This document shows positions 16,065 through 64,000 of a stretch of DNA of 64,000 nucleotides, one piece after another (the stretch's first letter is position 1; each line of letters opens with the position of its first letter). Both the position numbers and the translations under genes were made by a program. Origin of the DNA: Candidatus Woesearchaeota archaeon (GTDB lineage Archaea > Nanobdellota > Nanobdellia > Woesearchaeales > UBA119); assembly GCA_030156615.1 (NCBI GenBank), contig JASGME010000002.1, positions 7,085-71,084 of the forward strand. Reading direction: 5' to 3'. A model generated the notes under the pieces. That model saw only the letters and a program-made list of their open reading frames with translations. It was not told where the DNA came from and made no database searches.

Positions 16065-16072
16065 CTTTCCAC

Positions 16073-46022: not shown

Positions 46023-47708
46023 TTAATTCTTAGCGAGATAGAAGTATCGGGATTTCAAGAGCATTAAGGAGAGAACTACAAGAATCATCAATCCAGCAAT
46101 ATAAAACAACAAAGGACAAAGAGAAGGAAATATAGAAGAAATAGAATCTCCGAACAAGAGAGAGCGTCTCAACGACTCTGAACCAATAACATAGGGGTTG
46201 AAATGAGCAATCTTCTGCACAACAGGAGACAGATTTTCTAACGAAAGAACAAGATTAGAAAGGAAAAGAAATACAGAGCCCAAGGCAATTGATATCATCG
46301 TTATGCCTTCAAAAGTATTTAAGAGATTTCCCAAAAACAAACCTAGCAATGAGAAAACTGTTATACTTAAAAATAGTATCAACAGAGTTGACCCTATGTT
46401 AGCTATAAGAGGGATATCAAAGCAAAAATAGGCAACAAGAAACACTATAAACATCTGTATAGATATAAGTATTATAGAAGTAACATAAATCATAAAGGAA
46501 AAGAAAGATAATCTTACTGGCGTAACGAAGTTTCTAAAGAAGGCTTTTGATTTCTTTTCCATAAGCATCATCGTGCTAGGTAGCATCATTCCTACAAAAA
46601 GTACGATTAGCATCAGAAGGTATGGAAAGGTATAAACAAGCTTCCTTCTGTCTGCATTAACAGGTTTAATATTGGTTTCAACAGGAGAAGCAATAAGCTC
46701 TGGATTAGTTAATTCAAAAGAAGCAATCTCGCCAGAGATTTTATATAGATTCTCATCTAAAGTTGATAAAACAGGTTCCTGCTCGTCTAAACCTGACTTA
46801 ATATCCCGAGCAATTATTTGAAGTTTGGCTTTATCTTCTTCAAGTCCCTCAATTCTATTTCCAATTGAATCAATCTTTATTTGGGTTGAATTAATGCCCT
46901 CATTAAGAGATGAAACATAAACGAAGTAAGAGATGCTATTTTTCCATTCTTCTTCTAACTTAGATATGTCTGATTTTAGTTCGTCAAATTCGCTCTCATT
47001 CATATCAGAAAGAACTTCCTCTGCACTATCTATAACATCCTTGCTGGCATGTCTAACTGAGTAGAGATAATCATTAAGTTTTTCTACATCATATTTCATG
47101 TCTGAAACATCAATGTCAATAGTTGGAAGATTAAATGAACTTAACTCTTTTTCAAGCTCCTGCTGTAGTTGCTTATTCTGTTGCTGTTTTTCTTCTAGCT
47201 CATTCAGTTGTGAGATGCTTTCATCAACCATTTGCTGAGACATTTGTAATATAGAAATAAGCTTAGATCCAATCTCCTCAGTTATTTCTTTACTCTCTGA
47301 CTGAACATCTGTCTGAATTGAATTAATTACCTCGTATACAAGATTCATACGAGATTCATCTACATAAAAGTCCAATACATTTCTTGCGTTATGATCTAAA
47401 GAAAGATTCTGAGGGATATTAACACAAGCACTAACCACGCCAAGTTCTATGGCTCTTTTACAAGAAAAGATTTCAGGGAAATAAATTAAATCATTATCAG
47501 AGGAGTTTAAACTATCAAGAATCCTTTGACTAAGTTCTCCTGTGGAATTTCCAGAGAAACCAATATTTAATTTTGTAGTTTCAGAAGAAGATAGACTTGC
47601 TCCAATAATCAATACAATGAGCAGAGGAGCAATCAAAACTATCAAGGCCGAGCCCCATGACCTAAAAAGAATTTTTAGGTTCTTGAAAAATATTGTAAAA
47701 AATATCAT
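46023..47708 (-). CDS. ABC-2 family permease with YhgE/Pip-type coiled-coil ectodomain (second copy)
   Basis: Same architecture as 14043..16064: N-terminal TM, about 330-aa coiled-coil loop, C-terminal TM bundle. Confidence 0.75.
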   Translation of the reverse strand: MIFFTIFFKNLKILFRSWGSALIVLIAPLLIVLIIGASLSSSETTKLNIGFSGNSTGELSQRILDSLNSSDNDLIYFPEIFSCKRAIELGVVSACVNIPQNLSLDHNARNVLDFYVDESRMNLVYEVINSIQTDVQSESKEITEEIGSKLISILQMSQQMVDESISQLNELEEKQQQNKQLQQELEKELSSFNLPTIDIDVSDMKYDVEKLNDYLYSVRHASKDVIDSAEEVLSDMNESEFDELKSDISKLEEEWKNSISYFVYVSSLNEGINSTQIKIDSIGNRIEGLEEDKAKLQIIARDIKSGLDEQEPVLSTLDENLYKISGEIASFELTNPELIASPVETNIKPVNADRRKLVYTFPYLLMLIVLFVGMMLPSTMMLMEKKSKAFFRNFVTPVRLSFFSFMIYVTSIILISIQMFIVFLVAYFCFDIPLIANIGSTLLILFLSITVFSLLGLFLGNLLNTFEGITMISIALGSVFLFLSNLVLSLENLSPVVQKIAHFNPYVIGSESLRRSLLFGDSISSIFPSLCPLLFYIAGLMILVVLSLMLLKSRYFYLAKN

Positions 47709-47749
47709 TCAAATCATCTTCTCATATTATATTTTTGTTAATTTTTGCA

Positions 47750-48733
47750 TTAATCATGAAGGAATGCCTGATCCAAAGAAGGATTCTTTAATCCTAACTC
47801 AATTATCTCATCTCCCTGAGATTCAACCATTTCTTCTATATAATTCATAAGTTCTAAAGGATTATTACATATAAAAACGACCTCAACAAGGTCATCATGC
47901 CCTTCTACTACTTTGCTCGCAAGAATGCTTTGCTTAAATTTCCTTTCCACTTTATTTATCAAAGAATCGTAATTCCCTTCTCGTGTTCTTAGAATTATTT
48001 TATGGCCACGCGAGAATCGTTCTCGTAACTCAACCGGCGAACCTATTTCCTTAATCATACCATCTTCAAGGAGGGCTACCCTAGAGCATACTCTCTCTAA
48101 ATCATTTACCAAATGACTTGAGAGAAGTATGGTTGTGCCAGTCTTATTTATCCGACGAATAAGATCCCATATCTTCTCAATAAGTAGAGGATCTAAATCA
48201 GATGTTGGTTCATCTAAAATAAGAAGTTTTGGATTATGGATAAGAGCACACGCAATATCAAGTCTTCTTTTCATTCCCCCGGAGAGATTACGAGCAAGCA
48301 TCTGCTTTGAATCTGAAAGAGACATTAAATCCAATAAAAGGGTGATATTTGATTTAAGCGTATCGCTAGAAAGTCCGTATAACTTTCCAAAGTATCTAAG
48401 ATTCTCCAAAACATTCATATTGTCATAAAAGCTCGGGGTTTGAGCTGCAAAGCCAAAGAACTCTTTAAATTCCCTGCCATGCTTTAATATAGAACGAAAC
48501 TCAGAGGCATAAGAACCATTTTGAGTTTTCTTCTGCACAAGATACTTAACATCGCCTTTATCAGGCTTGAGAAAACCAATTATACAACTCAAAAGGGTAG
48601 TTTTTCCTGCTCCACTTGCTCCCATAATACCTAAAATTTCACCTTCATCAAGAGAAAAAGAGACCCCCTTTAAAACAGGAAGCTTGCCAAAAGTCTTGCT
48701 CATCCCTTCCACCGTTAATAAAGGATTCCCCAT
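47750..48733 (-). CDS. ABC transporter ATP-binding protein (second copy)
   Basis: Walker A 'GASGAGKTT', signature 'LSGGMKRRLDIACAL', Walker B 'LLILDEPTSDLD'. Confidence 0.9.
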   Translation of the reverse strand: MGNPLLTVEGMSKTFGKLPVLKGVSFSLDEGEILGIMGASGAGKTTLLSCIIGFLKPDKGDVKYLVQKKTQNGSYASEFRSILKHGREFKEFFGFAAQTPSFYDNMNVLENLRYFGKLYGLSSDTLKSNITLLLDLMSLSDSKQMLARNLSGGMKRRLDIACALIHNPKLLILDEPTSDLDPLLIEKIWDLIRRINKTGTTILLSSHLVNDLERVCSRVALLEDGMIKEIGSPVELRERFSRGHKIILRTREGNYDSLINKVERKFKQSILASKVVEGHDDLVEVVFICNNPLELMNYIEEMVESQGDEIIELGLKNPSLDQAFLHD

Positions 48734-48987: not shown

Positions 48988-49182
48988 TTGATTAGAATGG
49001 CTAAGATAGAAACTGTAAATGTAAGAATCCCAAGGAAGGTGGTGGATTGGTTAGATAGTTTAATCAGGGAAGGGCTCTACAAATCTCGTTCTGAAGCAAT
49101 ACGAGCCATTCTAAGAGAATATGTTTTAAGCGAAGAGAAAGCTGAAAAATCTGTTTCTTTGGAGGATGAGAGAAATGAATGA
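48988..49182 (+). CDS. Ribbon-helix-helix (CopG/NikR-N-like) DNA-binding protein
   Basis: 'KIETVNVRIPRKVVDWLDSLIREGLYKSRSEAIRAILREYV' is the canonical RHH strand-helix-helix. Confidence 0.55.
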   Translation: MIRMAKIETVNVRIPRKVVDWLDSLIREGLYKSRSEAIRAILREYVLSEEKAEKSVSLEDERNE

Positions 49183-49429
49183 TGTATTAGTTACGATTAG
49201 GATGCCCTCTCCTCTAGTTAAAAGACTTAATTCTTTATGTGAAAAAAACTTTTATATGGACCTTTCTGAGCAGATAAGAGATGTGCTAAACAAGAAGTTT
49301 CTGGAGCATGAAAATCAGAAATCTAATGCCACTAAGAAGAGCTCAAATAAAAAAGAACTAGCATACATGCTTGAAAGGAACGAACAATTACTGAGAGAAT
49401 TAAAAGAATCTTTGAGGAATTTAAAATGA
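49166..49429 (+). CDS. Second small RHH-like protein
   Basis: 'VLVTIRMPSPLVKRLNSLCEKNFYMDLSEQIRDVLNKKFLEH' has the same beta-alpha-alpha pattern. Overlaps both the upstream RHH gene and the downstream giant gene. Confidence 0.4.
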   Translation: MREMNDVLVTIRMPSPLVKRLNSLCEKNFYMDLSEQIRDVLNKKFLEHENQKSNATKKSSNKKELAYMLERNEQLLRELKESLRNLK

Positions 49430-52400
49430 GGAGAAAAATAAAGGGTTTTGGAAAGAGGAATCGTTTTGAAAGAAGGGCCCTTTTTGTTTTCCTTGCATTA
49501 ATTATCGGAATTAACATTTTTTCTGAGATTGATTTGGTTTATTGTGAAGAACCCCAACAAAATCAACAAAGTGAAACCACTCTTGAGCAAGAATCAACGG
49601 ATACAGAGATAAAGTGGACTGGAGAGTATGGCCCTTTGAACAATACAAATATAATCTATTCTCCTGAAGAAGAGATTGTCTTATGGAGCATATGGAACAT
49701 TTCGTCTGAAGGAGATATCGACATTCCAATTAGTCCTGATGGAAATATTTCAGATATAGAAGGGTTAACATGGAATTGTAGGAATGAAATCAATACTGAC
49801 AGCCAATACAACATTTCTTGTAATGCTACAGGAATACCCGCAGGGAACTATACTTGGAGTATATCATTAAACTATGAAAGCGAAGTATATTCTACTCCTT
49901 TATTTAACTTGGGGATTGAGAGAGCTGAGCCAAACATAACATTGAATGTCTCGAAGGAAACTATATATCAAAATGAAACCATAGAGATCTTTGCTAAGAA
50001 TTTTGAAGATGAAGGAACACTCTACCTTTTCAGAAACGGTTCTGAAATTAAGAATTCAACATATAAAATATCAATCAACCAAACATTTGAAGAGCCAGTA
50101 GAATACGAGATAAAATTAGTTTATAATGGCTCCGAGAACTATTTAGAAAAAACTAAAACTGAAACGATTAAGGTGCTACCCCTTGTATTCTCTCTCAATC
50201 TGACAAAAGGAAACTATTATAATTTGGGAGATGAAGTCGAATTTATTTTAGTAGCACCGAATGGATCTAATTCAAAGATAACTATTTACAGACATCTTGA
50301 ACAAAATATTGGATGGTTAAAAACCGAAATGTACATCAATATTGAGAATGAAACATATCCGAAAATAATATCCTTGGGATGCACGAATAAGACTGGTAAT
50401 TATTCAATAGATGCAGAAATAGAATATCTAAACATAACAAAAGAAATTACAAAAGAATACTTTGTATCAAATAGTATTGAAATTGAGATAGATGTTGAGG
50501 TAGAGGGGGATGAAATTGAAATAGATGAGGGAGAAGAGGTATTAATAGGAGAAGAAATAGAATTGGATGCTCTGGTTTCTGGAGGAATTCCTGGTTATAA
50601 TTATACATGGAGATTAGATAACGGGACCTCTCTGACAGGAAGGAGAATTGAACTGGTTTACAATGAGAAAGGAATACATGAAATCAACCTTACTGTAGAA
50701 GACGCAGAAAAAAACAGCAAAAGTAAGTCTATTACGATTGATGTAGATGAAGGGAAAGAGATAACTGTTAGGGTAAAAGATCCTGCTGGGAGGGCTATTG
50801 AATCAGCTTACGTTTCAATTGGAAATAGAAGGGATTATACAAACGAAAATGGAGAAGTAAAGATAAAAGCTCCACTAGGAGAACAAACACTAAGAGTAGA
50901 TAAGGGAAATTATGAAATGTATAGAAGGGTAATTAAAGTTGAAAATGAAGATACAATTGATGTTGTTCTCAAATTAGAAAAACATATTGCAAATAAAATC
51001 AACAGAATAATCCTATTTAATCCAAAAGACAATGTTACTCTGGACTCTAATGAAGTTACATTTTTAGCAGGTGTTAGCAGTTCTGAACCTGCCAAGTGCA
51101 GCGTTTTAATTAAATCAACGGAATCAGACTGGTTTGAAGAGATAAAAAAGTTTGAGGTTGAAGAAAGCTATGCTTTAGAGCTTAATAAGGAATTAGCAAA
51201 AGGAAAGTATCAATGGAAAATAGAATGCCGTATCAACAATCAATATTTTTCATCAGATATTGCGAGTTTTGAAGTTATAACCAGCAAAGAAACTAAAAAT
51301 CAGGAAACAACCATAAAAAGTGAAAAAATTGATGAGAATATTGACATCGGTTCCTTGAGAACTAAGATAGAGGCAGGATTTGAAAATCTTGATAACCTCA
51401 ACATGGAATCAAAAGAAGTAGCAGAAGTGCTTTCTGTTAAAAAAGAGCTTGAGAAGGCACTTCAAACATTTGAAAGAAAGATGCGGGACTTGAACAATCT
51501 ACAATATAGAGATGACTTAAGCAGCGATGAAAAGAAAGAAAAAGCAGAGGGATACCAAGAAGAGTTGAAGGAATTAGAGAAGAAAACAATATCTTTCGTT
51601 GAAGTAATAGACTCAGAAAACTATGTAAATTATCCAAAGAATGAGAAGCTTATCCAGATTGCCTCAACCTATCAAAATGAGAAAAGCATTTTAGGCAAAA
51701 TAGACGAAGATAAACTAAAAGAACTACAGAATAAGCTGTCTGTTGAAACTAAAGTAAGCCATGTTATGCTAAGCTTTCTCGACAATCAAACAAAGAATAT
51801 TACGCTTGTAGAAAAGACTATAACCTATTCGGGAGAAGAAGACAGTAGAATATTCATCTTAGAAGAGATATCAAAAGATTTTGCAGAATCTACAAATGCA
51901 ATTACATTCCTTGAAGAACAAGAAACAATTAAAAAAGATCCTTTAGTAAAATTTGAATTAGAAGAAAAAATAATCTATTACGCTGAGGGATTCAAGGATT
52001 TTGAGAGTATTAAAGAAAGCAACACAATCCTATTCTCAAACAATCTTATCTCTAATGATAAAAACAGAAATCTTATTACTGGAGCCTTCACCATGCAGGA
52101 AGTTGATTTTACCTCACCTATTTTTGGAATAGTATTTATTTCCATTGTAATTGTCATATACATACTCTTTTCAACAGAAGCAGGAGAAAAGATTATCAGT
52201 TTTGCAAGGATCTCCAAGAAGAGAAAGATGAATAAAATAAATTCTTTGATAAATGATTCCTTAAATTATATTGAAGAAGGCGATCTGAACAACGCCAATC
52301 TCGTTTTCAAAGAGATAAAACTCCTATATGAAAAGATGCCTCAACGGATTAAAAAGGAAGCATATGAAAGTGCAATAGGAGTATATGATAAGATAAACAA

Positions 52401-52575
52401 AGCTTACCTCTCAAAACTAATAGATCAGACAATTGATAAAATTAGGAAAGGTGAAAAGTTGAACAAAATAGAAATAATTGAAAGATTAGACCAAGCGTAC
52501 GATATACTTAATGAAGAAGATAAAAAAGAAATGCAAGATGAAGTTGAAAATCTGCTTAAGATAATCAACAAATAA
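49426..52575 (+). CDS. Giant single-pass surface protein (PKD-like and CarbopepD-reg-like domains, coiled coil, TM, cytoplasmic tail)
   Basis: N-terminal TM/signal 'ALFVFLALIIGINIF'. PKD-like 'GYNYTWRLDNGTSLTGRRIELVYNEKGIHEINLTVEDAEKN'. Cna-B/CarbopepD-like 'ITVRVKDPAGRAIESAYVSIGNRRDYTNENGEVKIKAPLGEQTLRV'. TM 'IFGIVFISIVIVIYILF' at about aa 890. About 140-aa helical tail. Confidence 0.7.
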   Translation: MRRKIKGFGKRNRFERRALFVFLALIIGINIFSEIDLVYCEEPQQNQQSETTLEQESTDTEIKWTGEYGPLNNTNIIYSPEEEIVLWSIWNISSEGDIDIPISPDGNISDIEGLTWNCRNEINTDSQYNISCNATGIPAGNYTWSISLNYESEVYSTPLFNLGIERAEPNITLNVSKETIYQNETIEIFAKNFEDEGTLYLFRNGSEIKNSTYKISINQTFEEPVEYEIKLVYNGSENYLEKTKTETIKVLPLVFSLNLTKGNYYNLGDEVEFILVAPNGSNSKITIYRHLEQNIGWLKTEMYINIENETYPKIISLGCTNKTGNYSIDAEIEYLNITKEITKEYFVSNSIEIEIDVEVEGDEIEIDEGEEVLIGEEIELDALVSGGIPGYNYTWRLDNGTSLTGRRIELVYNEKGIHEINLTVEDAEKNSKSKSITIDVDEGKEITVRVKDPAGRAIESAYVSIGNRRDYTNENGEVKIKAPLGEQTLRVDKGNYEMYRRVIKVENEDTIDVVLKLEKHIANKINRIILFNPKDNVTLDSNEVTFLAGVSSSEPAKCSVLIKSTESDWFEEIKKFEVEESYALELNKELAKGKYQWKIECRINNQYFSSDIASFEVITSKETKNQETTIKSEKIDENIDIGSLRTKIEAGFENLDNLNMESKEVAEVLSVKKELEKALQTFERKMRDLNNLQYRDDLSSDEKKEKAEGYQEELKELEKKTISFVEVIDSENYVNYPKNEKLIQIASTYQNEKSILGKIDEDKLKELQNKLSVETKVSHVMLSFLDNQTKNITLVEKTITYSGEEDSRIFILEEISKDFAESTNAITFLEEQETIKKDPLVKFELEEKIIYYAEGFKDFESIKESNTILFSNNLISNDKNRNLITGAFTMQEVDFTSPIFGIVFISIVIVIYILFSTEAGEKIISFARISKKRKMNKINSLINDSLNYIEEGDLNNANLVFKEIKLLYEKMPQRIKKEAYESAIGVYDKINKAYLSKLIDQTIDKIRKGEKLNKIEIIERLDQAYDILNEEDKKEMQDEVENLLKIINK

Positions 52576-52583
52576 AAAGGAAG

Positions 52584-55500
52584 ATGGAAAAAAGAAAGAG
52601 AAAGGATGTTTTAAACAAGGACATTGAACATATTATAGAAAGAGAACCTGCCTTAGAGAAATTTTTAGATGAAAGAAACAAAAGAAGAATTGAGAGTAAA
52701 AACAACTGGACAATTATTATCTTTCTTATAGTATTCGCAATAATTCTAATAACTGCCTCAATCCTGAAATATGAAGGGATTACCGGATTATTTGTATATC
52801 ATGAGGGCAAAGGCGGATATATATATAATATGAATTTAGAATATAGAAGACCAACCTTTAATTGGGTAGCTCTCTATGGAGCTGCATTCGGAGTCGGATT
52901 TTCACAGCCTTGGGAATTTACCTTTGAACCAGGAGAAACAGAAGAAGCCAATATGTTCTTTGAGTGTGTAGAACAAGGAAAGGATAACCTCTTGTTTGCA
53001 TCTACTGTGCCGCCTGAAGAGATAAATGTGCAGGAACTTGCTCCAATGTCAACATACGATATTGATGCATTTATAAACACAGACCCAAACAATTATGATT
53101 CTGCTTCAAACACATTTACCGAAACAATGAGTATAGAGATTGGCTCTACTGTTATAAACAACATTCCGACCGCTACAACTAAGGTTGGTGATGATACAGA
53201 AGAAGGAACATTTAAAACAGGTCTTTTGAAGGACACAAATGGGAATCCTGTTATAGTAACCATCCTTAATGATAAACTAGTCAAAGGATTCAACAACCGT
53301 TACTATAACTACCAATTTCTACTTCCAGTACATAACAATGAAACCACCAAATATTACATTTTCATTGATCCAACGAATGTTTGTATGTCAGGAACAGAAG
53401 AGCCTTATATAGAAGGAACAGTATATGGAACAGTTAATGACATAAGTGGGAATCCATTAGAGGATGTGCTAATTACCTCAGGCCCAAAATCAACGGTCAC
53501 TGATGAAAAAGGATTTTATAATCTGACAACAGCGGCGGGGGAGACTCTGATTATTGCGATAAAAGAGAGGTATCAGGTTTATGAGAGCAATATTACCATC
53601 CCAGAACTAAATTCTACAGAGCATAACATCATTATGGAACTTGAGACTGAAAAGCAGAAAGAGTATGAAACCCCGCCGATGGAACAAAATGTTGGACCTG
53701 ATTTTGGGCCTGGGGTTGGTCCTGGCGAGATCCCTTATGTAGAAGAGAGACCTTCAGAGATTGAGGGAAAGGAATTTTGGGTTTCTGTCAAAGAGATAAT
53801 CAAGAAGATTAGAGAAGATGAGTTTGCTCAGGAGGTCATTCACATACAGAATTTTAAGAATACTGGGATGCTACTTCAATTCAACATAACCGGTGACGTA
53901 AGAAAACTTGCAATGCTGGATAAAAAGGATATGTTTATCGGTGCAAAAGATTTAGACGATTTAACCATTACTTTCTTTGGCAATAGTTCTCCCGGGATAT
54001 ATAATGGAAGCCTAGATATTAGTGGCGAGATTAATCATAGTATACCAATAAAGATTGAGATTCTAGATAAAGATAAAACTCAAGTCCAAGCATTGCTGAT
54101 GGAAGTCCGTGTGCCTGATAAGAGTTATTATCCGAGTTCGCTTGTTAGATTTGAGACTGCACTTACGAATATGCTTACTGACCAGCAGTATCCAGTTGGA
54201 CTTACATATACTATACAGAATATTGATGGAAATGAAACATTATGGACTCATCAGACAAATGTATTCCTTAGAACCTCTATGTCTATCCTAAAGAACTACG
54301 AATTGCCTCCGAATGTATCCCCTGGAGAATACATCATACGGGTTAGCGCAAGTTATCTTGATTTAACGAGCAGTTCTACTGCTCTGTTCACAGTTACAGA
54401 ACCATTCTTACAACATCTTCTGTTTGGAAAGATAAGGGTTTGGCAGGCGTTAGTTGGTGGGATTGGCTTGGCTCTCTTGATATTTGGTATATTATTGATT
54501 AAGAAGGAGAGAGAATCTAAGAAGAAGTACAATCTCAAAGTTGAATATTCACAACTCCCAAAGCCCGGGACTGGCACGATTTTTGTTGGAAAGATTGCTG
54601 AGACTAACAACAAAGCCTATTTTGAGGTTGATAATTTTAAGACTCACACGATTGTTGCTGGTAGTACTGGTAGTGGTAAGAGCTTTGCAGCTCAAGGGCT
54701 TGTCGAAGAATTGCTGGAGAAGGGGGTATCAGTTATTGTCTTTGATCCAACTGCCCAATGGACTGGTTTCTTGAGGAAGCTTGAGGACAAGGGACTTCTC
54801 AACCTTTATCCAGGGTTTGGAATGAAACCTAATGAAGCGAAGTCTTTTAAGGGCAATATTAGAGAGATTACTGATCCAAGGGAAATTATAAACATCAAAG
54901 AGTACATGAAACCGGGGGAAATTCAGGTTTTCGCACTCCATAAGCTTGATCCAAAAGATATGGATATTTTTGTAGCAAACACGGTTAGAGAGGTTTTCCA
55001 CGAGAATTTTGATGAATCGCGGGAGCTAAGGCTTTGCCTTGTTTACGATGAGGTCCATAGATTGCTTTCAAAGTTTGGCGGTAGCGGTGAGGGCTTCATA
55101 CAGATTGAAAGGGCTTGCAGAGAGTTTAGGAAGTGGGGCATAGGTGTAATCCTTATCAGTCAGGTTTTGGCGGACTTTGTTGGACAGATTAAAGCTAATA
55201 TCAATACAGAAGTGCAAATGAGAACTAGGGATGAAGGAGATCTTGAAAGGATTAAAACAAAGTATGGAGATGATGTATTGAAGAGTTTGGTTAAAGCGAG
55301 TGTAGGAACTGGAATGGTTGAGAATGCTGCATACAACAGGGGCCGCCCTTACTTCATTACATTCAAGCCAATCAGACATTCGGTAGAGAGGCTATCCGAT
55401 GAGGAGATTGAAAAATATAATGAGTATAATGACATTATAGATCAGATGCAGTATGAACTGGAACAGCTTGAAAAACTTGGCCAAGATGTATTTGACTTGA

Positions 55501-56531
55501 AATTGGAGTTAAAGCTTGCTCTTGATAAAGTAAAGGCAGGCGGATTCAACATGGCACAGATTTACATCGATGGCTTGAAGCCGAGGATTGAGAAGCTCTG
55601 GAAGAAGCTTGGAAAGGAGCCAAAGAAGTTGGAGAGGAAGAAGGTTTCTGAAGAAGAGATGAAGGAAGAGTTAGAGAAGGCTAAGAAAGAAAGAGAAGAA
55701 GCTATGGCCAAAGAAAAGAATAAAGGAGACAAAGATGAGAAGAAGGAGGAATCTCCAATTGAACGGTTTAACGAAGATGTTCCACCGGATAAAATGCTGA
55801 AGCTCAATAATGGAATGCTTGTAGTTAACCCAAGAAACTTGTATGCAGAGATTGAAGCGATGAAAGAATCTGTATTCAAATCTCATGTGAATGAGAATAA
55901 GAACGACTTCGCCGAATGGTTTAGAGATGCGGTAGGAGATTATGAGCTCGCAGAACTCCTTGAATCAACCAGAGACAAGAAGAAGATTTTGGAATTGTTG
56001 GACAGGAGAAGCAAAGGAGAGAAACTGTCTGAAGTGGAAATGAAGAAAGAAGATGAGAAGGAAGCGGATATTGAGCAATCAGGTGATAAGACAAAAGAGA
56101 AAGTGGAGAAAGAGAGAGATGAAGAAGGAGATAAAGAGAAAAAAGACGATGAAGAAAACAAAGAAAGAAAGGAAGATAATGAAAGAAATATAAGCAAAGA
56201 TGATGAGAAAAAAGATAATGAAAAGGATGCCTCTTCCAACTCAAAAGGTGACATAGAACTTGATGAGATACTTAAAAAGAGGGCTCCAAAAGGCAAGGAA
56301 TTCAAGTTCTCAAACGGCAAAGAGGCATCTAATCTTGAGGAGTTAGTTGAAACTCTGAAGGATATGCCCGAAGAGGAATTCATTAGTTATGTTAATAAAG
56401 ATAAGCACGATTTCTCAAACTGGGTAAGATATTCTTTAGAGAATGATGAGCTCGCTGATAAGCTATCAAAGATTATGAGCAAGGACAAGCTCATAGAGGC
56501 GTTGTCAAATGGTAGAAGAAAAGAAGAGTGA
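52584..56531 (+). CDS. Bitopic membrane protein: N-terminal TM, about 560-aa ectodomain, second TM, cytoplasmic HerA/FtsK-superfamily (DUF87-like) P-loop ATPase, and 2x repeated C-terminal module
   Basis: TM1 'IIIFLIVFAIILITASIL'. Ectodomain with CarbopepD-reg-like 'YGTVNDISGNPLEDVLITSG...TDEKGFYNL'. TM2 'ALVGGIGLALLIFGILLI' (about nt 54438-54503). Walker A 'TIVAGSTGSGKSFAAQGLVEELLEKGVSVIVFDPTAQW' (HerA 'GxTGSGKS...DPhGEY' pattern). Walker B 'CLVYDEVHRLL'. Two tail modules ('LKLNNGMLVVNP...KNDFAEWFRDAVGDYELAELL' and 'FKFSNGKEASNLEEL...KHDFSNWVRYSLENDELADKL') separated by K/E/D-rich linkers. Confidence 0.75.
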   Translation: MEKRKRKDVLNKDIEHIIEREPALEKFLDERNKRRIESKNNWTIIIFLIVFAIILITASILKYEGITGLFVYHEGKGGYIYNMNLEYRRPTFNWVALYGAAFGVGFSQPWEFTFEPGETEEANMFFECVEQGKDNLLFASTVPPEEINVQELAPMSTYDIDAFINTDPNNYDSASNTFTETMSIEIGSTVINNIPTATTKVGDDTEEGTFKTGLLKDTNGNPVIVTILNDKLVKGFNNRYYNYQFLLPVHNNETTKYYIFIDPTNVCMSGTEEPYIEGTVYGTVNDISGNPLEDVLITSGPKSTVTDEKGFYNLTTAAGETLIIAIKERYQVYESNITIPELNSTEHNIIMELETEKQKEYETPPMEQNVGPDFGPGVGPGEIPYVEERPSEIEGKEFWVSVKEIIKKIREDEFAQEVIHIQNFKNTGMLLQFNITGDVRKLAMLDKKDMFIGAKDLDDLTITFFGNSSPGIYNGSLDISGEINHSIPIKIEILDKDKTQVQALLMEVRVPDKSYYPSSLVRFETALTNMLTDQQYPVGLTYTIQNIDGNETLWTHQTNVFLRTSMSILKNYELPPNVSPGEYIIRVSASYLDLTSSSTALFTVTEPFLQHLLFGKIRVWQALVGGIGLALLIFGILLIKKERESKKKYNLKVEYSQLPKPGTGTIFVGKIAETNNKAYFEVDNFKTHTIVAGSTGSGKSFAAQGLVEELLEKGVSVIVFDPTAQWTGFLRKLEDKGLLNLYPGFGMKPNEAKSFKGNIREITDPREIINIKEYMKPGEIQVFALHKLDPKDMDIFVANTVREVFHENFDESRELRLCLVYDEVHRLLSKFGGSGEGFIQIERACREFRKWGIGVILISQVLADFVGQIKANINTEVQMRTRDEGDLERIKTKYGDDVLKSLVKASVGTGMVENAAYNRGRPYFITFKPIRHSVERLSDEEIEKYNEYNDIIDQMQYELEQLEKLGQDVFDLKLELKLALDKVKAGGFNMAQIYIDGLKPRIEKLWKKLGKEPKKLERKKVSEEEMKEELEKAKKEREEAMAKEKNKGDKDEKKEESPIERFNEDVPPDKMLKLNNGMLVVNPRNLYAEIEAMKESVFKSHVNENKNDFAEWFRDAVGDYELAELLESTRDKKKILELLDRRSKGEKLSEVEMKKEDEKEADIEQSGDKTKEKVEKERDEEGDKEKKDDEENKERKEDNERNISKDDEKKDNEKDASSNSKGDIELDEILKKRAPKGKEFKFSNGKEASNLEELVETLKDMPEEEFISYVNKDKHDFSNWVRYSLENDELADKLSKIMSKDKLIEALSNGRRKEE

Positions 56532-57012
56532 GGAGGTTCAAAACTCGGAAGAGAATAAAGAAGATGATGGAGACAAGAAAGAAAAAAGAGATCTAGGAAA
56601 AATGGAGCTTGACAGAGTAATGAACATTTCGGAGAAATACTTAGAGAAAGTCAATAGAATGAAGATGCTTGCTGGAAAGGATTTACGAGAGAACATCGAA
56701 AAGGTAGAAGAGCTAAAGGAAAAACTTAGAGAGTTTGAAGGAGAGATTTCAGCAGCCAGAAAAACAGGAAAGAATATGTTCCATTCTTCATCCTTTTTAA
56801 AACTGGCTAAAGGAAAGATTGGAATACTTGAGATTGAATATAATGAAGAAGAGATAGATAAAATGATTGAGCTTATAAATGAGATTGGGGAGCAAATCAA
56901 GGAGGATAAAGATAGGAAGGTGTTTGATTTGAGGAGCGAAATAATGATGAAGGCAAAGGATAATATAAGCAAAGAGTCAAAAGAAGAATCACAAGAAAAG
57001 ACAGATGAATAA
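56509..57012 (+). CDS. Acidic coiled-coil protein (possible start at internal Met 56602)
   Basis: K/E-rich helical sequence with heptad character. 5' end overlaps the ATPase gene in another frame. No family recognised. Confidence 0.45.
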   Translation: MVEEKKSEEVQNSEENKEDDGDKKEKRDLGKMELDRVMNISEKYLEKVNRMKMLAGKDLRENIEKVEELKEKLREFEGEISAARKTGKNMFHSSSFLKLAKGKIGILEIEYNEEEIDKMIELINEIGEQIKEDKDRKVFDLRSEIMMKAKDNISKESKEESQEKTDE

Positions 57013-57065
57013 AGATAGATAAAAAAGGTTATAATAAAAGATGATATGAGAAAGGGGGTGAGATT

Positions 57066-57953
57066 ATGTGGCCATTTAAAAGGAAACCGAGCGATGAGGA
57101 ACTGATTCAGCAGAATCTGGAAAATGAAAAAAAAAGAGTGGAGGTTGGAAATAGCTCTGAAGAGAACAACTTTGATGAGTCAAAGTTGGGTATAGAACTG
57201 ATAAAACTCAGTGCTAAGGTTGAAGGATTGAGTGAAGAAAGAAAAGCCATTAATGAAAGGTTTTCCAAGATAAATGAAGAGATTGGAGAGCTGAGAGGCA
57301 TTCTGACAGATACATCAAAAACTATTGCAAATCTTGAAACTGCTGCCACTAAGGCAATTGATCTTGTTGAATCAGTCAAACCCGAGACCCTGATGGTTGA
57401 AGTCAGAAAGGTTGATTCAAAGACAGAGGCTCTAAAGGCAAATATTGAAAGCAATGAGTCTCTTGCCAAGAATGTATTGGAGCAACTGAAACAGATGCAG
57501 AACAAGATAAATTTCTATAAGGGGGTTGAACAGGTAACTAAGCTTAATGATGAAATTAAGGATGAGTTGATTGAGATAAAGAAAAGAGAAGCCACAGTAG
57601 AGAGGCATTCTAATAAGGTTGAGTCTATGTTTGTTGAGGTTGAGAAGAGATTCTCTGAATTTGATAAGTTCAATGATGTTACTAAGAATCTTCAAAGGAG
57701 TTTTGACAAGCTTCAGGGTGATTTTGATAAGCTAAAGGTTGAGATAGACAAGAAAGCTGACAAGAATGAGATGGTTACATTCATCAAGAAATTCAACAAG
57801 TTTGAGAAGCACACTACTAATCTAATAAACATGCTTGACGACAAGACAAAATCAACGATGGAAGAATTAAAGAATAAGTTTTCAAAACTCTCCAAAGAGA
57901 TTAAAGAGGAGGTTGAAGATTCCCTTAAGAAGATAAAGGAAAATAGCAAATAG
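57066..57953 (+). CDS. Coiled-coil protein (295 aa)
   Basis: Continuous heptad-rich helical sequence ('...KTIANLETAATKAIDLVESV...'), cytoplasmic in character. Encoded between the ATPase and the giant adhesin. Confidence 0.5.
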   Translation: MWPFKRKPSDEELIQQNLENEKKRVEVGNSSEENNFDESKLGIELIKLSAKVEGLSEERKAINERFSKINEEIGELRGILTDTSKTIANLETAATKAIDLVESVKPETLMVEVRKVDSKTEALKANIESNESLAKNVLEQLKQMQNKINFYKGVEQVTKLNDEIKDELIEIKKREATVERHSNKVESMFVEVEKRFSEFDKFNDVTKNLQRSFDKLQGDFDKLKVEIDKKADKNEMVTFIKKFNKFEKHTTNLINMLDDKTKSTMEELKNKFSKLSKEIKEEVEDSLKKIKENSK

Positions 57954-57968
57954 AAATAAGGATTTCAG

Positions 57969-60900
57969 ATGCAAAAAAGAAAAATTATTGGAGGTTTGTT
58001 AGTTTTAATCATATTCCTGATTTTAGGTAATCAGGGCTCTTTTTCTGAGATTCAGGATTCTGCTGTTTCTTTTGCCCCTCTTGAAAAGGAGGCATATGGA
58101 ATTAATGAAAGTATAGAGATTGAGCTACTTCCTAAAGAGATTAATGGAATTGATGTTTCCAACGAATATGATTTGGTGATGGTTAAAGAAGATCTGAGAA
58201 GCAAGTATTTTGGTGAGCTGTTTTTTCCTCTTGTGCTAAGTTTTTCTGAGCCGGGAGAATATATAATGTTTTTAATTAATAATCAAGGGGAAGAGATTAG
58301 TCGTCTGAAATTTGTTGTTTCTGATGATAAAGATAGCAATGTGACGAAAAAAGAGGCAGATAATGATAGGTATCCTGTGCTTAAGATAAGCTCAAACATG
58401 CTTGCTAAGGGAGAAGAATTGATAATTTCGCTTTTGGAAGGCGATATTACCGATTCCTCATTGGATCTATATATCACCCATGAAAATAAGAATTTCAAGT
58501 TGTTAGAGCTTTCCAGAGAGGTTAGATTTACTCCTTCTAAAGAGGGAGAATATCGAGTTCAGCTCAGGGATGATGAAAAGGTTGTTGATGAGATGATTTT
58601 TTATGTTGAAGAAAAAAGCAATAACGAAAAAAGCGAGAATAAAGAGATGTTGCCTAAAAGAGAAACTGGAGGAGAATTTAACCTTTCTTCTTTGAATCAA
58701 GAAAAAAGGCTTGCAACTATTCCAGTTAGGGCAAAGAATCACAAAGGGCAAACGAAAGAGCTTATTGGAGTCCTAGGGAGCTCTTTTCGAGGAGAATTTG
58801 TTGAAGTTGTTAATGCAACAAACAATATAAAAAGAATCAGAGTCTATGATCTGAAGCTGAACAACATTAATGAACTGAAGATAGAGGATATTGATAATAA
58901 AGAGGTTTGGGTAAACCGGGAGAAGAGCGTACAATCCTTTGCAATTGATCCACGGGCTTTGAATTTCTCATTTGCTCAGATTGAACTTGAGGCAAAAGGA
59001 ACTGCATTGTATAAATGCGAGGAGTATGATTTCGATACACAAGAATGTTTTGGTGGCTGGAAGAAAGAAAGGAACATTGTTCCTGGAGAGAATTATACTA
59101 TTGTGCTTACCCCTGAGGATCCTTTGTACAGCGAAATAAACACTTCTGTCGGATGCAGCTGCTCTGATTCGGCAAATCGGCAGACTAGCGGAACACTCTC
59201 CTGTTCTACTTTCTGCCCTTTTAACATAGACATCCCTGAAGATGCAATGAGTTTTTTCCTTCAAGAGATTTATTATGACATTACTGTTACTGTGAATAAC
59301 GATAGATGTACAATGACAAATGCTCAGCAGAGAGGATATTTTGACCATGATCAAAATCAAGGGGATGGTGATGAAGCTATTATAGGGAGCAGTTCTTATA
59401 CTTCAACCACATCAACAACATGGACAAATTCAAGCATTGCACAATCAGGTTCTTATTCTTTCACTAACCTTGATTGCAGCAATTGGCCTAATTATTGCAC
59501 TTATTATGTATACATTAATTCAAGCATGGATTTTACTTCGCCATTTGGGTTACTTAGGAGAAGTCCTAGTATGACTATTTCTGTTGATGCTATAAATTAT
59601 ACTATCAACTATACAGAAGCAGGCTCCTTCTCAGTATCCCTTGATTCGCCATTTCACCTATACAGGACGAATGCAACTATACAAGAATTTACATATACCC
59701 CAAGCAATGAAGATTATTCTATCAGCAACTGTTCTATATATACTAATGAAACAAGCTGGAGCGTGAAGAATACTACTTATTCTATCACAAACGGAAGTCA
59801 GAACACAATAACAGCAGAGTTCAATAATGAAGGACATTATGCCTGGAATGTGAGGTGCTGGGATTCTAATGGGAATAACGCTACTTCTGCAACAAACAGA
59901 ACTATTATTATCGATAGGACTGGTCCTGAGATTGCTCTTGTTTCTCCAGCAAACGAAGAAACATATACAGATTCAAATGTTGTTTCCTTTACCTATAATG
60001 TGAGCGATGATTCAGATATTGATAATTGCACTTTATACATAAATGGAATTGCTAAGAAAACAGACAGTTCTATATCAAAGGGCCAAAACCAGATTATATA
60101 TTATAACCTTAACAATGGAGATTATACTTGGTCCATTGGCTGCATTGATGAAGCAGGGAATTTTAATCAAAGCAGCTCACGAGATCTCACTGTAGCAGCG
60201 ATCAAGCCAATTTATTATGGAAGCTGGTATGAATCTTCTTCCAATGATTGCACAATATTCCCTTGTGAAATTTCTTTACAGCAGCAGAACGATGGAACCC
60301 AGAATTCTATTTCTGGAACAATACCTGCTTCTGCTTCTGAGCTGATAATCAAAGCAGAATCTCCTTTTATGGGAGCGAACGGTGCAGAAATATCTACTTC
60401 AAATGTACTTTTCAGCACTTATTTTCAAACATCTAATAGCAGAGTAGAAGTAAGCTGGTGGTTATATATCCTGAACAGCTCTGATGGAAAAGAGTTGATA
60501 TGCTCAAATACATTAGGAACAGCAAGTTCTTCTGGAGCAGCTACAACAGGGAGTTGTACACCTTCTAGCGACAAGAGACTTCTTAGCACTGACAGGTTAT
60601 ACTATGAAATAGAACTTACAAACACATTTCCCATATTTTCAAGGAATTTCAATCATCTTATTGATCATGTCTCAAGCTTTGTAAATATTACTGGTTTTAC
60701 CCAGTTGGGAAATCTTGAAGCAACAAAAACCTCTCCATCTTCTACATTATACATTAATCAAGGTGAATCTTTTATATTATCATGTGATGTGAATTGCAGT
60801 GCTGGAAGTTGTCTTAATACAAATGTAACAGCAGAGACCAATGAATCGGGAAGCTGGAACGTCATATCTTCTTCAGGGATTGTATCGCTTAATGGAAGCG

Positions 60901-63900
60901 AGAACAATCCTCATGTCATGGGCAATATCTTCAACACTTCCAATTCAACCTCTTTCAGCTTGAATGGCTCTTCTCCGGGCTCTACTTATGTTAGGTGTGC
61001 TGCTCAAAGTAAGTATTCTACTTCTTATACAGAACCTGTTAAGATAAATGTAATAAGTACTGAAGCACCAGAGGTAAATCTTATTTCTCCTGAGAATGAA
61101 AGCTGGATAAACAGTTCAAGCGTTATCCTTAAATATATCCCATCATCATATAACGAGATTGCCAACTGCAGTCTATATATTGATGGAATTTTTAATCAGA
61201 CCAATTCCAGCCAGATAAACAATGGAGGAACTAATACTTTCACCATCTCATCACTTGAGCAAAAAGAATACAATTGGAGCGTCTCCTGTACTGATACTTA
61301 TTCAAGAACAGGGAATTCTTCTACATGGAAGTTCAATGTAGATTATAATAAGCCTTATATGATTGAGCTTAACGAACCTATTGATGAGTTTAGCACTACC
61401 TCTCCAGATATTGAATTTAACTGGACCGCATATGATAATATTGCTTCTAACATGAGCTGTGATTTAAGAATTAACGGATCTGTCAACAAATCCATTATTG
61501 CATATAATGGAAGCCCTGCAAATACCACAATTTATGATTTAGATATTGGTCATTATGTCTGGGATGTTGTATGCATGGATTGGGCAAATAATTCAAATAC
61601 CTCAGAAACAAGAAGCTTTAATATCTCTGATGAACCTCCTTATGTCTCTTTATATTCCCCTGAGAATGAAAGCGGGACAAACGAGACAACTGTTGAATTT
61701 ACATATAATGCTTATGATAATTTTGCTCTGGCGGAATGTAAATTGTATATCAATGGGGAATATAATCAAAGCAATCAAACTGAGCTGATAAATGGATTGA
61801 ACAATTTTAGTGTTAGTTTTGAGGAAGGAATATATAATTGGAGCGTTAGTTGTTACGATAACAAAGACAATAGTGCTTCAACAGGAAATGCAACCCTTTA
61901 TGTTGATTTCACTAAACCAGAGATTGGCCTTCAGGCTCCTGCTCCTGAAGCCTATTTCACTGATTCGAAGATTAGTTTTTCTTATACACCAACTGACAAC
62001 TATCAAGAGTTAAATTGCACTTTGTATGTTGACGGAATTGAGAATGATCATTCGGAAGTAATCAGCGGAAGCCAGTACGATGTTACCTTGACTGGATATA
62101 AAGACGGAGTTCATTATTGGAATGTGAGCTGCACGGATATTGGAGGAAATATCAATTATTCTGAGACAAGGAATTTTACTATAAACCAAACCCCTATTGT
62201 TGAGCCCATATCTCCATTAAATAATACACATACGAATCAGGACAATGTAATCATAGAATATAATGTAAGCGATAATGATGAGATTGGGAGTTGCAGCTTG
62301 TTCATTAATGGAAGTTTTAATCAGACTAATTCTACAGCGATATCAAAGGATCAGGTAAACAACTTTACACTTTCTTTCCCTTCAGAAGGAGAATATAACT
62401 GGTCAGTGGAATGCAACGATAGTGGGACATATAGCAATTCTAATGAATCTTATGTTTGGAATTTTATCGTAGATAGGACGGGTCCAAAAGTCTCATTAAA
62501 CCATCCTGAGAATGACTATACAATTAACACTCCGCTCTACACATTTAATTGGACAGTTGAGGATAATTTCGCTACTGGGCTTCTCTGTAACATTACTATA
62601 AACGATAGCGTTAATGGGAGCAATATTGAAAGCAATAATGGAGCTCCTACCTTGTTTAATGTGACTGGACTAAGGAACGGAGATTTTAATTGGAGTGTTA
62701 CCTGCGCAGACAATGCAACTAATACTAATACCTCTGAGACTTGGAATTTTACAGTACTTCTTATTCCTAGGGTTGACCTTACAAGCCCAGAAGACGGAGA
62801 CGGTGATTTATTTCATGATGTAACATTTAAGTATATACCAAGTTTGGGGAGCGAGAATTTTATCAATTGCAGCCTTTGGTTAAATGGAGAGGAAAACGAA
62901 ACAAGTTATGATATAACTGCTAATGCAGAGAATAACTTTACTGTTAATCTGCCTGATGGAAAATATGAATGGAATGTAAAATGTTATGACAGCAACAATC
63001 TTGATGGAATGGCTAAAGAGAACTGGACTTATTATGTGGATTCAGAAGTGCCTTATGATATAGAATTGTTATATCCTGAAAATGATTCTATTGTTGAAAG
63101 AAACAATGTATCCTTCAAGTTTATACCAAAGGATAAGGTTTCAGATGAGTTAAGCTGTGATATTTATCTAACTGATGAGGAATTCACTTATAAAATAGGG
63201 TCTGATTTGAATGCAACCAATGGAAGTGAATATGTCTATTATTCTGTTTTAGAAGATGGAAGTTATAATTGGAGCGTGGACTGCACTGATAAGGCAGGAA
63301 ACTTTAATGTATCTGATACCTTTTACTTTGATGTTTTGGCGCCACCAAATGTTACTTTAGTTGCACCTGATAATGAAACCTGGTTCAATGAAACAGATGT
63401 GAATCTTACTTATTTTCCTTCAGATGACATACTAATAACTGGCTGTGCTCTATACATAAATGGGAGCTATGAGAAGTCGGCATCTTTTGTATTGAACAAC
63501 CAGAACAATACCTTTGAGCTAAACGATATTTCACAGGGGGAATATCTATGGAGTGTAAAATGTTATGACAGCGATGGAAACAGTTTTATGCCTGTGAATA
63601 AGACTTTCTATGTGGATAATCAGACTCCTAAGATTTTCCTAAATCATCCAACTAATTCAGAAGAGCTGGACTCAAGCTCTGTAACGTTTAATTGGACTGT
63701 AAATGATAATCTTGCAAAAAAGCTTAGTTGCGACCTCTTGATTAATAATAGTCCCAAAGAAACGAATATAATGAGCAACAATGGAGAGCCGACTAACTTT
63801 ACCATTGAAGGAATGGATGACGGAGATTATAACTGGAGCATTGTATGTAGGGACAATGCTCAGAATTCAAATCAAAGCAGCACTGAGGACTTTTCAGTGC

Positions 63901-64000
63901 AGGAGCCACCAAAGATAAGCTTAGGAGATCCTGTTGAAAATAATAGAAACAATTCTGTTAATATGACTCTGTATTTTACGGCAACAGACAACTCCGGTGA
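57969..64000 (+). CDS. Giant repeat adhesin-like surface protein, 3' partial (>2010 aa, continues beyond window)
   Basis: ATG at 57969, preceded by in-frame TAA at 57957. N-terminal signal 'IIGGLLVLIIFLILG'. Traced codon by codon with no in-frame stop to the window end. Not in the supplied track because it has no stop codon. Confidence 0.75.
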   Translation, partial: MQKRKIIGGLLVLIIFLILGNQGSFSEIQDSAVSFAPLEKEAYGINESIEIELLPKEINGIDVSNEYDLVMVKEDLRSKYFGELFFPLVLSFSEPGEYIMFLINNQGEEISRLKFVVSDDKDSNVTKKEADNDRYPVLKISSNMLAKGEELIISLLEGDITDSSLDLYITHENKNFKLLELSREVRFTPSKEGEYRVQLRDDEKVVDEMIFYVEEKSNNEKSENKEMLPKRETGGEFNLSSLNQEKRLATIPVRAKNHKGQTKELIGVLGSSFRGEFVEVVNATNNIKRIRVYDLKLNNINELKIEDIDNKEVWVNREKSVQSFAIDPRALNFSFAQIELEAKGTALYKCEEYDFDTQECFGGWKKERNIVPGENYTIVLTPEDPLYSEINTSVGCSCSDSANRQTSGTLSCSTFCPFNIDIPEDAMSFFLQEIYYDITVTVNNDRCTMTNAQQRGYFDHDQNQGDGDEAIIGSSSYTSTTSTTWTNSSIAQSGSYSFTNLDCSNWPNYCTYYVYINSSMDFTSPFGLLRRSPSMTISVDAINYTINYTEAGSFSVSLDSPFHLYRTNATIQEFTYTPSNEDYSISNCSIYTNETSWSVKNTTYSITNGSQNTITAEFNNEGHYAWNVRCWDSNGNNATSATNRTIIIDRTGPEIALVSPANEETYTDSNVVSFTYNVSDDSDIDNCTLYINGIAKKTDSSISKGQNQIIYYNLNNGDYTWSIGCIDEAGNFNQSSSRDLTVAAIKPIYYGSWYESSSNDCTIFPCEISLQQQNDGTQNSISGTIPASASELIIKAESPFMGANGAEISTSNVLFSTYFQTSNSRVEVSWWLYILNSSDGKELICSNTLGTASSSGAATTGSCTPSSDKRLLSTDRLYYEIELTNTFPIFSRNFNHLIDHVSSFVNITGFTQLGNLEATKTSPSSTLYINQGESFILSCDVNCSAGSCLNTNVTAETNESGSWNVISSSGIVSLNGSENNPHVMGNIFNTSNSTSFSLNGSSPGSTYVRCAAQSKYSTSYTEPVKINVISTEAPEVNLISPENESWINSSSVILKYIPSSYNEIANCSLYIDGIFNQTNSSQINNGGTNTFTISSLEQKEYNWSVSCTDTYSRTGNSSTWKFNVDYNKPYMIELNEPIDEFSTTSPDIEFNWTAYDNIASNMSCDLRINGSVNKSIIAYNGSPANTTIYDLDIGHYVWDVVCMDWANNSNTSETRSFNISDEPPYVSLYSPENESGTNETTVEFTYNAYDNFALAECKLYINGEYNQSNQTELINGLNNFSVSFEEGIYNWSVSCYDNKDNSASTGNATLYVDFTKPEIGLQAPAPEAYFTDSKISFSYTPTDNYQELNCTLYVDGIENDHSEVISGSQYDVTLTGYKDGVHYWNVSCTDIGGNINYSETRNFTINQTPIVEPISPLNNTHTNQDNVIIEYNVSDNDEIGSCSLFINGSFNQTNSTAISKDQVNNFTLSFPSEGEYNWSVECNDSGTYSNSNESYVWNFIVDRTGPKVSLNHPENDYTINTPLYTFNWTVEDNFATGLLCNITINDSVNGSNIESNNGAPTLFNVTGLRNGDFNWSVTCADNATNTNTSETWNFTVLLIPRVDLTSPEDGDGDLFHDVTFKYIPSLGSENFINCSLWLNGEENETSYDITANAENNFTVNLPDGKYEWNVKCYDSNNLDGMAKENWTYYVDSEVPYDIELLYPENDSIVERNNVSFKFIPKDKVSDELSCDIYLTDEEFTYKIGSDLNATNGSEYVYYSVLEDGSYNWSVDCTDKAGNFNVSDTFYFDVLAPPNVTLVAPDNETWFNETDVNLTYFPSDDILITGCALYINGSYEKSASFVLNNQNNTFELNDISQGEYLWSVKCYDSDGNSFMPVNKTFYVDNQTPKIFLNHPTNSEELDSSSVTFNWTVNDNLAKKLSCDLLINNSPKETNIMSNNGEPTNFTIEGMDDGDYNWSIVCRDNAQNSNQSSTEDFSVQEPPKISLGDPVENNRNNSVNMTLYFTATDNSG
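61065..64000 (+). repeat. At least 11 tandem ~285-290-nt (~95-aa) protein-coding repeats inside the giant adhesin gene
   Basis: Repeat units begin near 61065, 61350, 61630, 61915, 62190, 62480, 62770, 63050, 63340, 63620 and 63905. Each has 'P(E/D)N..(T/S)...', 'NC(S/T)L(Y/W)ING..N(Q/E)(T/S)' and '(Y/F)NWSV.C.D..(G/N)N'. Two earlier, more divergent copies lie near 59,900-60,190. Confidence 0.75.

Follow-up and report, generated by a model that had tools for sequence, protein, structure and literature searches.

What is the short module that recurs on the cytoplasmic tails of otherwise different membrane proteins in a Woesearchaeota genome, and what might it do there? The question arises from a preliminary description of a 64,000-nucleotide stretch of Candidatus Woesearchaeota archaeon (GenBank assembly GCA_030156615.1, contig JASGME010000002.1, positions 7,085 to 71,084), hereafter called the window, in which two copies of the module were assigned to a membrane ATPase and one to the C-terminus of a surface protein. 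All three copies were found where that description had placed them. Their boundaries were set by a hidden Markov model (HMM) of 60 module sequences, and the copies, linkers and carrier proteins are arranged as follows (TM, transmembrane; AF2, AlphaFold2; pLDDT, predicted local distance difference test).

52584..56531 (+), carrier 1, a membrane ATPase of 1315 aa, consisting of a TM segment, an extracellular region of ~550 aa (CarboxypepD_reg), a second TM segment, a P-loop domain and a tail with copies A and B
55611..55787 (+), K/E-rich linker ahead of copy A, after the ATPase domain region; the enclosing aa 986-1071 are 44% K+E
55788..56015 (+), module copy A, ATPase aa 1069-1144, read as one DUF5752/OrfY unit; module HMM i-E 1.9e-24
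56016..56294 (+), disordered linker from copy A to copy B, ATPase aa 1145-1237 (93 aa); 63% K+E+D, AF2 pLDDT 38-46
56295..56513 (+), module copy B, ATPase aa 1238-1310 at the extreme C-terminus, read as one DUF5752/OrfY unit
39816..42989 (+), carrier 2, a surface protein of 1057 aa, consisting of a signal/TM segment, an extracellular region of ~700 aa, a TM segment, a charged tail of ~200 aa and copy C
42753..42980 (+), module copy C, surface protein aa 980-1055 of 1057; module HMM i-E 2e-19

The resemblance among the copies goes beyond K/E composition. In pairwise BLASTP with composition-based statistics, copies A and B share 35% identity over 68 aa (E 7.5e-12), A and C 39% over 49 aa (E 1.3e-10), and B and C 30% over 53 aa (E 2.4e-6). 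Smith-Waterman scores of the copy pairs lay 8-16 standard deviations above those of 1000 shuffles, and every observed score exceeded the shuffled maximum. The copies contain 21-27% K+E, whereas the linkers preceding them contain 40-48%; hence the similarity of the copies is not compositional. Copy C differs by a 4-aa insertion that precedes the NDF motif. When each copy was compared with the six-frame translation of the window, nothing below E 0.01 was obtained beyond the other two copies, and an HMM of the three copies, like that of the 60 sequences, detected no fourth copy anywhere in the window. In an Rfam scan of the same DNA, no RNA family reached its gathering score.

The module had not been recognised as a named domain, and this part of the description did not hold. 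Pfam PF19027 (DUF5752) matches the whole ATPase in two stretches with 33.3 bits (E 4e-8; cut-off 23 bits), and for the ATPase orthologues this domain was already listed in their precomputed Pfam annotation. Scanned alone, copy B gave 26.6 bits over profile positions 15-81 and thus passed the gathering score, while copies A (22.6 bits) and C (22.7 bits, positions 132-201) fell just below it, since the most that either can cover is one half of the 208-position model. Since single copies match either one half (15-81) or the other (132-201), the Pfam model is a tandem of two units. DUF5752 is therefore a ~75-aa unit duplicated internally, and the unit works in single copy as well. A search of the Protein Data Bank (PDB) with the module profile returned one entry, 4CSO (E 1.4e-10), which was matched twice, at aa 18-87 and 132-191. 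It is a 216-aa protein of Thermoproteus tenax whose PDB molecule name reads 'ORFY protein, transcription factor'. From these profile matches, the three window stretches are almost certainly single repeat units of the DUF5752/OrfY family. They share the fold of this solved family member, and they lack its packed two-unit architecture over the whole 208-position model. Thus the module itself is not new: it has been catalogued, it has a crystal structure and it stands in the annotation of the ATPase orthologues. In our literature search no paper was found that names DUF5752, PF19027, OrfY together with tenax, or 4CSO. In T. tenax the orfY gene adjoins the gene of the GT4 trehalose synthase TreT.

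The unit is a compact cytoplasmic domain of ~75 residues, composed of a β-hairpin and five short helices, and its family signature reads F.L.NG ... L..M.D..F..HVN..KNDFA.W ... LA. AF2 modelled a single unit with a pLDDT of 89. In the model of the whole ATPase tail both units exceeded 90, copy A ranging from 88 to 96, and the pLDDT was ~40 over tail aa 88-156.

Both carriers place their units inside the cell, in agreement with the preliminary description. The ATPase matches PF01935 (DUF87) with 45.7 bits (cut-off 23.2) and has the Walker A motif GSTGSGKS at aa 693, and on these two features it belongs to the HerA/FtsK superfamily of P-loop ATPases. NCBIfam, with just partial, sub-threshold matches (CedD, TraC, HerA), does not allow a finer assignment. 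CarboxypepD_reg matches weakly at aa 279-351, its 26.2 bits lying under the cut-off of 32.3, and the same domain is listed in the precomputed annotation of the orthologues. Hydropathy places the TM segments of the ATPase at aa 42-64 and 619-641; both precede the Walker A motif, and the P-loop domain and everything after it are thus cytoplasmic. The surface protein has its signal/TM segment at aa 21-48 and its TM segment at aa 752-779 by the same measure, the latter being followed by KK and a charged tail. Taken together, the TM positions, the Walker A motif and the KK with charged tail put copies A, B and C all on the cytoplasmic side, behind linkers of 40-48% K+E. The ATPase orthologues are 53-98% identical, some of them named 'DUF87 domain-containing protein [Candidatus Woesearchaeota archaeon]', and an exact-sequence look-up of the window ATPase returned no record. 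Orthologues of the surface protein are 57-73% identical, and copy C is kept in two of the loci described below, L047 (UBA119) and L076. That one discrete fold is common to two otherwise unrelated membrane proteins is borne out as well, and a shared handle on cytoplasmic tails is a plausible reading of it.

How far the family extends was examined by an exhaustive HMM search of 1.84 billion representatives (50% identity level), which gave 4,459 representatives at E≤1e-3 and 1,693 at E≤1e-10. A word-indexed homologue search was much less sensitive, yielding 2 matches with the 3-copy alignment and 6 with the 60-sequence alignment. Architectures were taken from the best 150 HMM matches and from 83 loci (L numbers) fetched with two peptide patterns of the 3-copy alignment. 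The loci are a Woesearchaeota-rich sample in which calls of open reading frames (ORFs) and TM predictions are simple heuristics. Many of the top 150 proteins bear two or three units. The unit occurs alone (80-130 aa), in OrfY-like tandems (170-230 aa) and in small tail-anchored proteins with the unit N-terminal and the TM segment C-terminal. It is also fused to KaiC-like ATPases (two or three N-terminal units), a T2SSE/PilB-like ATPase (C-terminal), acetate kinase (N-terminal), a transketolase subunit (C-terminal), an ABC-2 permease (C-terminal) and the HerA-type orthologues of the window ATPase (~1200-1440 aa, one to three units). Most units are acidic, with a median isoelectric point (pI) of 5.8 and 69% below 7; for the ATPase copies the median is 4.8. 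DUF5752 is among the more promiscuous uncharacterised cytoplasmic domains of DPANN archaea and of bacteria of the candidate phyla radiation (CPR).

Two further families outside the window carry the unit. In proteins of ~400-460 aa (P0006, P0007, P0011, P0012, P0016, P0019, P0022 and others) DUF5752 is the sole Pfam match. Their layout comprises an MVK..I.GL N-terminus, a long acidic disordered region, a helical block with the conserved pattern ..KEKLL.GDL..RM.NYWELKK.EI.., a heptad-like charged stretch and two C-terminal units. Proteins of 650-850 aa (L009:4107-6161, L015:4218-6158, L016:3306-5411, L061:4062-6620) hold one mid-protein unit at about aa 260-390 and no further Pfam match. They always occupy one housekeeping neighbourhood (Cbf5/TruB, DUF357, DUF1385, the carrier, Dus, thermosome), of which Dus and thermosome are absent in L061.

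The genes next to the module genes were surveyed in the 83 loci. ORFs called there were clustered, and the large clusters were identified by Pfam and NCBIfam, with the following neighbours.

GH57, 40 loci of the 83
GT4/GT5 glycosyltransferase with best NCBIfam similarity to glycogen synthases, 39 loci
GT3 glycogen synthase (PF05693), 24 loci
GH15, 9 loci
GalT-like protein, 7 loci
MinD/ParA-like ATPase, its gene adjoining module genes, 7 loci
GDE_C, 6 loci

Of the 83 loci, 40 have their module genes within glycogen operons, between the GT4/GT5 glycosyltransferase and GH57. Typically GT4/5 is followed by GH57, then by one or two small soluble carriers and a tail-anchored carrier, and finally by GT3. 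Module genes adjoin each other in 39 pairs, and in 19 of these a tail-anchored carrier comes after a small soluble one. The link is seen in DPANN archaea, Patescibacteria (CPR) and Dehalococcoidia (Chloroflexota); in L036 (Dehalococcoidales) a unit gene stands directly before a bona fide glgA (TIGR02095, 520 bits). The main genomic home of the DUF5752 family is therefore the GT4-GH57-GT3 glycogen cluster, and the domain occurs widely among tiny symbiotic archaea and bacteria, as a rule in such clusters. GT3 synthases are confined to DPANN and Euryarchaeota, and both their priming in archaea and the role of GT4 beside GH57 are called unsettled in a 2024 review (PMC11046441). Within the 64-kb window itself no glycogen genes were found. 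Some other recurrent neighbours (SRP54, ThrRS, Cbf5/TruB, thermosome, Dus, aIF5B-like, SDR) were set aside as DPANN housekeeping synteny.

Among the carriers of these operons, the tail-anchored proteins show a recurring glycine-zipper-like terminal TM motif (e.g. DFLLGLVIGFIIGLII and EFVIGLIIGLVIGIILG), and the small soluble carriers upstream often start with Lys-rich tails (e.g. MAKTKKKTKGRKSKKK). Such loci are spread over L011-L077 (e.g. L024:4977-5354, L025:5320-5844, L013:1217-1714). Soluble and tail-anchored units are not sharply distinct paralogues of the kind an obligate heterodimer would imply, with 34-38% identity in all comparisons and weak separation.

The second setting of the unit is the Woesearchaeota cluster to which the ATPase belongs. 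The window DNA is 80-83% identical to Candidatus Woesearchaeota archaeon UBA119, and the same gene order recurs in several Woesearchaeota.

48988..64000 (+), conserved cluster in the order RHH_1, small ORF, PKD protein, ATPase, w167, w295, giant ORF
49426..52575 (+), upstream surface protein of 1049 aa with Pfam PKD and CarboxypepD_reg; syntenic in L001-L003
56509..57012 (+), w167, a downstream charged helical protein; module absent here
57066..57953 (+), w295, 295 aa, with weak coiled-coil-type Pfam matches only; 42-88% identical to the same-position gene in L001-L008

The giant ORF begins at 57960 and leaves the window after at least 2013 aa. It is 83% identical to a 2317-aa ORF of UBA119, and in relatives this surface-protein ORF has CARDB/Big_13 domains. 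The whole cluster looks like one cell-surface apparatus. Neither module HMM detected a unit in the cytoplasmic tail of the PKD protein or in w295, and there was no sign of a degenerate fourth copy, whether in w167, w295 and the PKD protein tail or elsewhere in the window. Unit bearers in the Woesearchaeota cluster comprise the ATPase (1-3 copies), the downstream protein (1-2) and the ABC-2 permease. The proteins of the w167 type start with one unit in L002, L005, L006 and L008 and with two in L003. By BLASTP, w167 aligns only to their post-module part (L005 aa 117-261, E 1.2e-8; L003 aa 187-330; L002 aa 145-227). Because w167 is homologous to the post-module part of module-bearing proteins, these neighbours look like fellow carriers rather than receptors. 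The suggestion that the adjacent coiled-coil proteins serve as docking partners of the module thus needs revision.

In the ATPase orthologues the gap from first to last module ranges over ~60-225 aa. Copy A best matches the first ATPase modules of seven relatives and is thus their positional orthologue, and for copy B the best match is a UBA119 fragment, followed by the last ATPase modules of five relatives. As both copies are kept in position across the ATPase family, both are under selection; with ATPase modules as their best matches, both are old and maintained, and the window lineage is simply without a w167 unit. Capture of copy B from the downstream gene through a shifted boundary was rejected, for copy B groups with the last ATPase modules and not with downstream-gene modules. 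The UBA119 orthologue of the ATPase (L001:5671-10264, DAWM01000019.1) is split into the overlapping frames 5671..9831 and 9455..10264. The split falls inside the K/E-rich linker, a low-complexity stretch, and probably reflects an assembly or frameshift artefact; the public gene call there is an 87-aa fragment with copy B only.

The window also contains two pairs of ABC-2 permease and ABC ATPase, at 14043..17038 (-) and 46023..48733 (-), and the latter pair flanks the ATPase cluster here as in relatives. In L003 the corresponding ABC-2 permease ends in a DUF5752 unit (i-E 9e-6), whereas the window permeases are without one. Beside the gene of the surface protein, 37716..39488 (-) encodes a predicted surface protein of 590 aa that matches nothing in Pfam. 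Its C-terminus has a TM segment and then a short CKNC...CKKC tail resembling a zinc ribbon, and it is 80% identical to the same-position gene beside the surface-protein orthologue in L076. That locus is one of 18 titled 'uncultured Methanosarcinales archaeon' (L014, L015, L019, L025, L026, L030, L034, L040, L045, L046, L049, L055, L061, L063, L064, L067, L069, L076). Since these loci show synteny and high identity with Woesearchaeota/Nanoarchaeota loci and a median GC content of 0.35 (proteins of L076 are 57-80% identical to window proteins, and L030 encodes an ATPase orthologue), their 'Methanosarcinales' labels are doubtful.

What, then, might the unit do on these tails? It is folded, conserved, cytoplasmic and non-catalytic, and its tethers in the window proteins are disordered; we infer that it is a binding handle. 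We propose, with a probability of roughly 35%, that it is a non-catalytic association module which gathers its carriers at the membrane through other DUF5752 units. The unit would then be a handle on a flexible leash, by which its carriers would reach a shared cytoplasmic partner at the membrane, most simply another DUF5752 unit. Unit-to-unit contacts would cluster the ATPase tail with the surface-protein tail and, in relatives, also with the w167-type protein and the ABC-2 permease. In the glycogen operons, the tail-anchored protein would keep the neighbouring soluble carrier at the membrane via the same contacts. A portable handle is suggested by the tandem and multi-copy architectures, the unrelated fusions, the soluble and tail-anchored pairs and the several carriers per cluster. 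Meanwhile, tethers that are disordered (pLDDT ~40) and of widely varying length suit a leash and not allosteric coupling.

Several points weigh against this proposal. The best-conserved residues form the polar/aromatic motif H-V-N ... K-N-D-F-x-N-W, which would equally be expected of a ligand or glycan site. Bacterial loci often have a single stand-alone unit of ~100 aa beside glgA with no second carrier nearby, and such units fit an obligate pairing handle poorly. The soluble and tail-anchored units are only weakly differentiated. Finally, the proposal does not account for the strong link of the family to glycogen genes.

It is this link that sustains the main rival, possible though on balance doubtful, in which the unit targets its carriers to α-glucan (glycogen) or to its GT4/GH57/GT3 machinery. 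In that case the unit might coat or tether storage-glucan particles, the tail-anchored carriers might fix the particles to the membrane, and the fused enzymes, this ATPase and this surface protein might thereby be positioned beside the store. The operon position in 40 of the 83 loci, many of them with GT3, GH15, GDE_C or GalT-like genes, argues for such targeting, as do the unit gene immediately before glgA in the Dehalococcoidales locus, the persistence of the link across DPANN archaea, CPR bacteria and Chloroflexota, and the fusions to carbon-metabolism enzymes (acetate kinase, transketolase). Several copies on flexible linkers are typical of polymer-binding modules, the conserved W/H/N/D cluster may resemble sugar-binding chemistry, and GT3 priming and the GT4 role are called unsettled (PMC11046441). 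On the other hand, the helical fold is unlike known starch- or glycogen-binding modules, the 64-kb window is free of glycogen genes, and there is no evident reason for the tails of a surface protein and a secretion-type ATPase to bind glycogen. Gene adjacency, moreover, is association only. The Pfam scans gave no match to a carbohydrate-binding module (CBM), and the putative glucan link is one of gene neighbourhood.

Should the link be functional, DUF5752 might be a missing organiser of the GT4-GH57-GT3 α-glucan pathway in DPANN, CPR and some Chloroflexota, including a coupling to the Woesearchaeota surface; we consider this broader version rather unlikely. If true, glucan synthesis would take place at the membrane, fixed there by tail-anchored carriers, and the same handle would couple the storage-glucan system to the Woesearchaeota cell-surface apparatus of ATPase and giant adhesin.

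Less probable still is a small-molecule sensor, in which pairs of units would form a regulatory ligand-binding module similar to CBS or ACT domains. Such a module would respond to a metabolite, a sugar or nucleotide-sugar, and adjust the activity of the ATPase, enzyme or transporter to which it is attached. In their frequent pairing and their variety of fusion partners (enzymes, ATPases, transporter) the units do resemble regulatory ligand-binding domains, the polar/aromatic motif is localized and highly conserved, the unit is found in metabolic operons, and OrfY was labelled a regulator by its depositors. However, a disordered linker of 60-225 aa between the unit and catalytic domains is a poor allosteric route, and many carriers, being the unit alone or the unit with a TM anchor, are without an output domain.

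A DNA-binding domain, with a role like that of FtsK γ on an FtsK/HerA-type motor, is strongly disfavoured. It would accord with the PDB molecule name of 4CSO, with a position that parallels the γ domain on a linker after the FtsK motor, and with the Lys-rich N-terminal tails of the small soluble carriers. Yet the units are mostly acidic (median pI 5.8; ATPase copies 4.8), and one would not expect such a domain to be fused to acetate kinase, transketolase and tail anchors. The unit has neither the signature or fold of a helix-turn-helix (HTH) or winged HTH (wHTH) nor basic DNA-binding character, and no HTH, wHTH or FtsK_gamma match was obtained from Pfam. Chance or a K/E low-complexity origin, which tails of 40-48% K+E might suggest, is refuted with near certainty by E-values of 1e-6 to 1e-12, shuffle z-scores of 8-16, the 1,693 representatives at E≤1e-10 and a confident fold matching a crystal structure.

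Handle-mediated association at the membrane is our best guess. The value of the observation lies in the link between DUF5752, the glycogen cluster and a membrane tether in DPANN/CPR organisms and not in the repeat itself. The new leads are the internal duplication, the promiscuity of the unit, its glycogen-cluster home and its decoration of the Woesearchaeota surface/ATPase cluster. Because the family is absent from the literature searched, modest biochemistry could give a function to thousands of proteins, and the answer might also shed light on the way in which carbon storage is organised at the membrane of reduced symbionts.

Compared with known systems, the window units stand closest to OrfY (4CSO) and the Pfam model PF19027, with which they share the signature ..HV..(K)NDF..W... 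OrfY and the model are soluble, with two units on a short connector and longer loops ahead of the NDF motif. The window units, in contrast, are single, lie either 93 aa of disordered linker apart (ATPase) or alone (surface protein), and are tethered to membrane proteins; membership in the OrfY family explains nothing mechanistically about them. The FtsK γ domain follows the FtsK motor on a linker. What it shares with the window units is this position, that of a small accessory domain joined by a flexible linker behind a P-loop motor of the FtsK/HerA superfamily, and the parallel is one of analogy only. Sequence and fold show no similarity, and the window units are acidic and lack a winged helix, come in two copies and occur on proteins that are not motors as well. 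Like CBS (Bateman) pairs and CBM or S-layer homology (SLH) repeats, the units are small, portable, non-catalytic and often paired, ride on many unrelated carriers and also occur alone in metabolic operons. Their fold is unrelated, and their long disordered tethers set them apart from CBS pairs; the likeness is one of behaviour.

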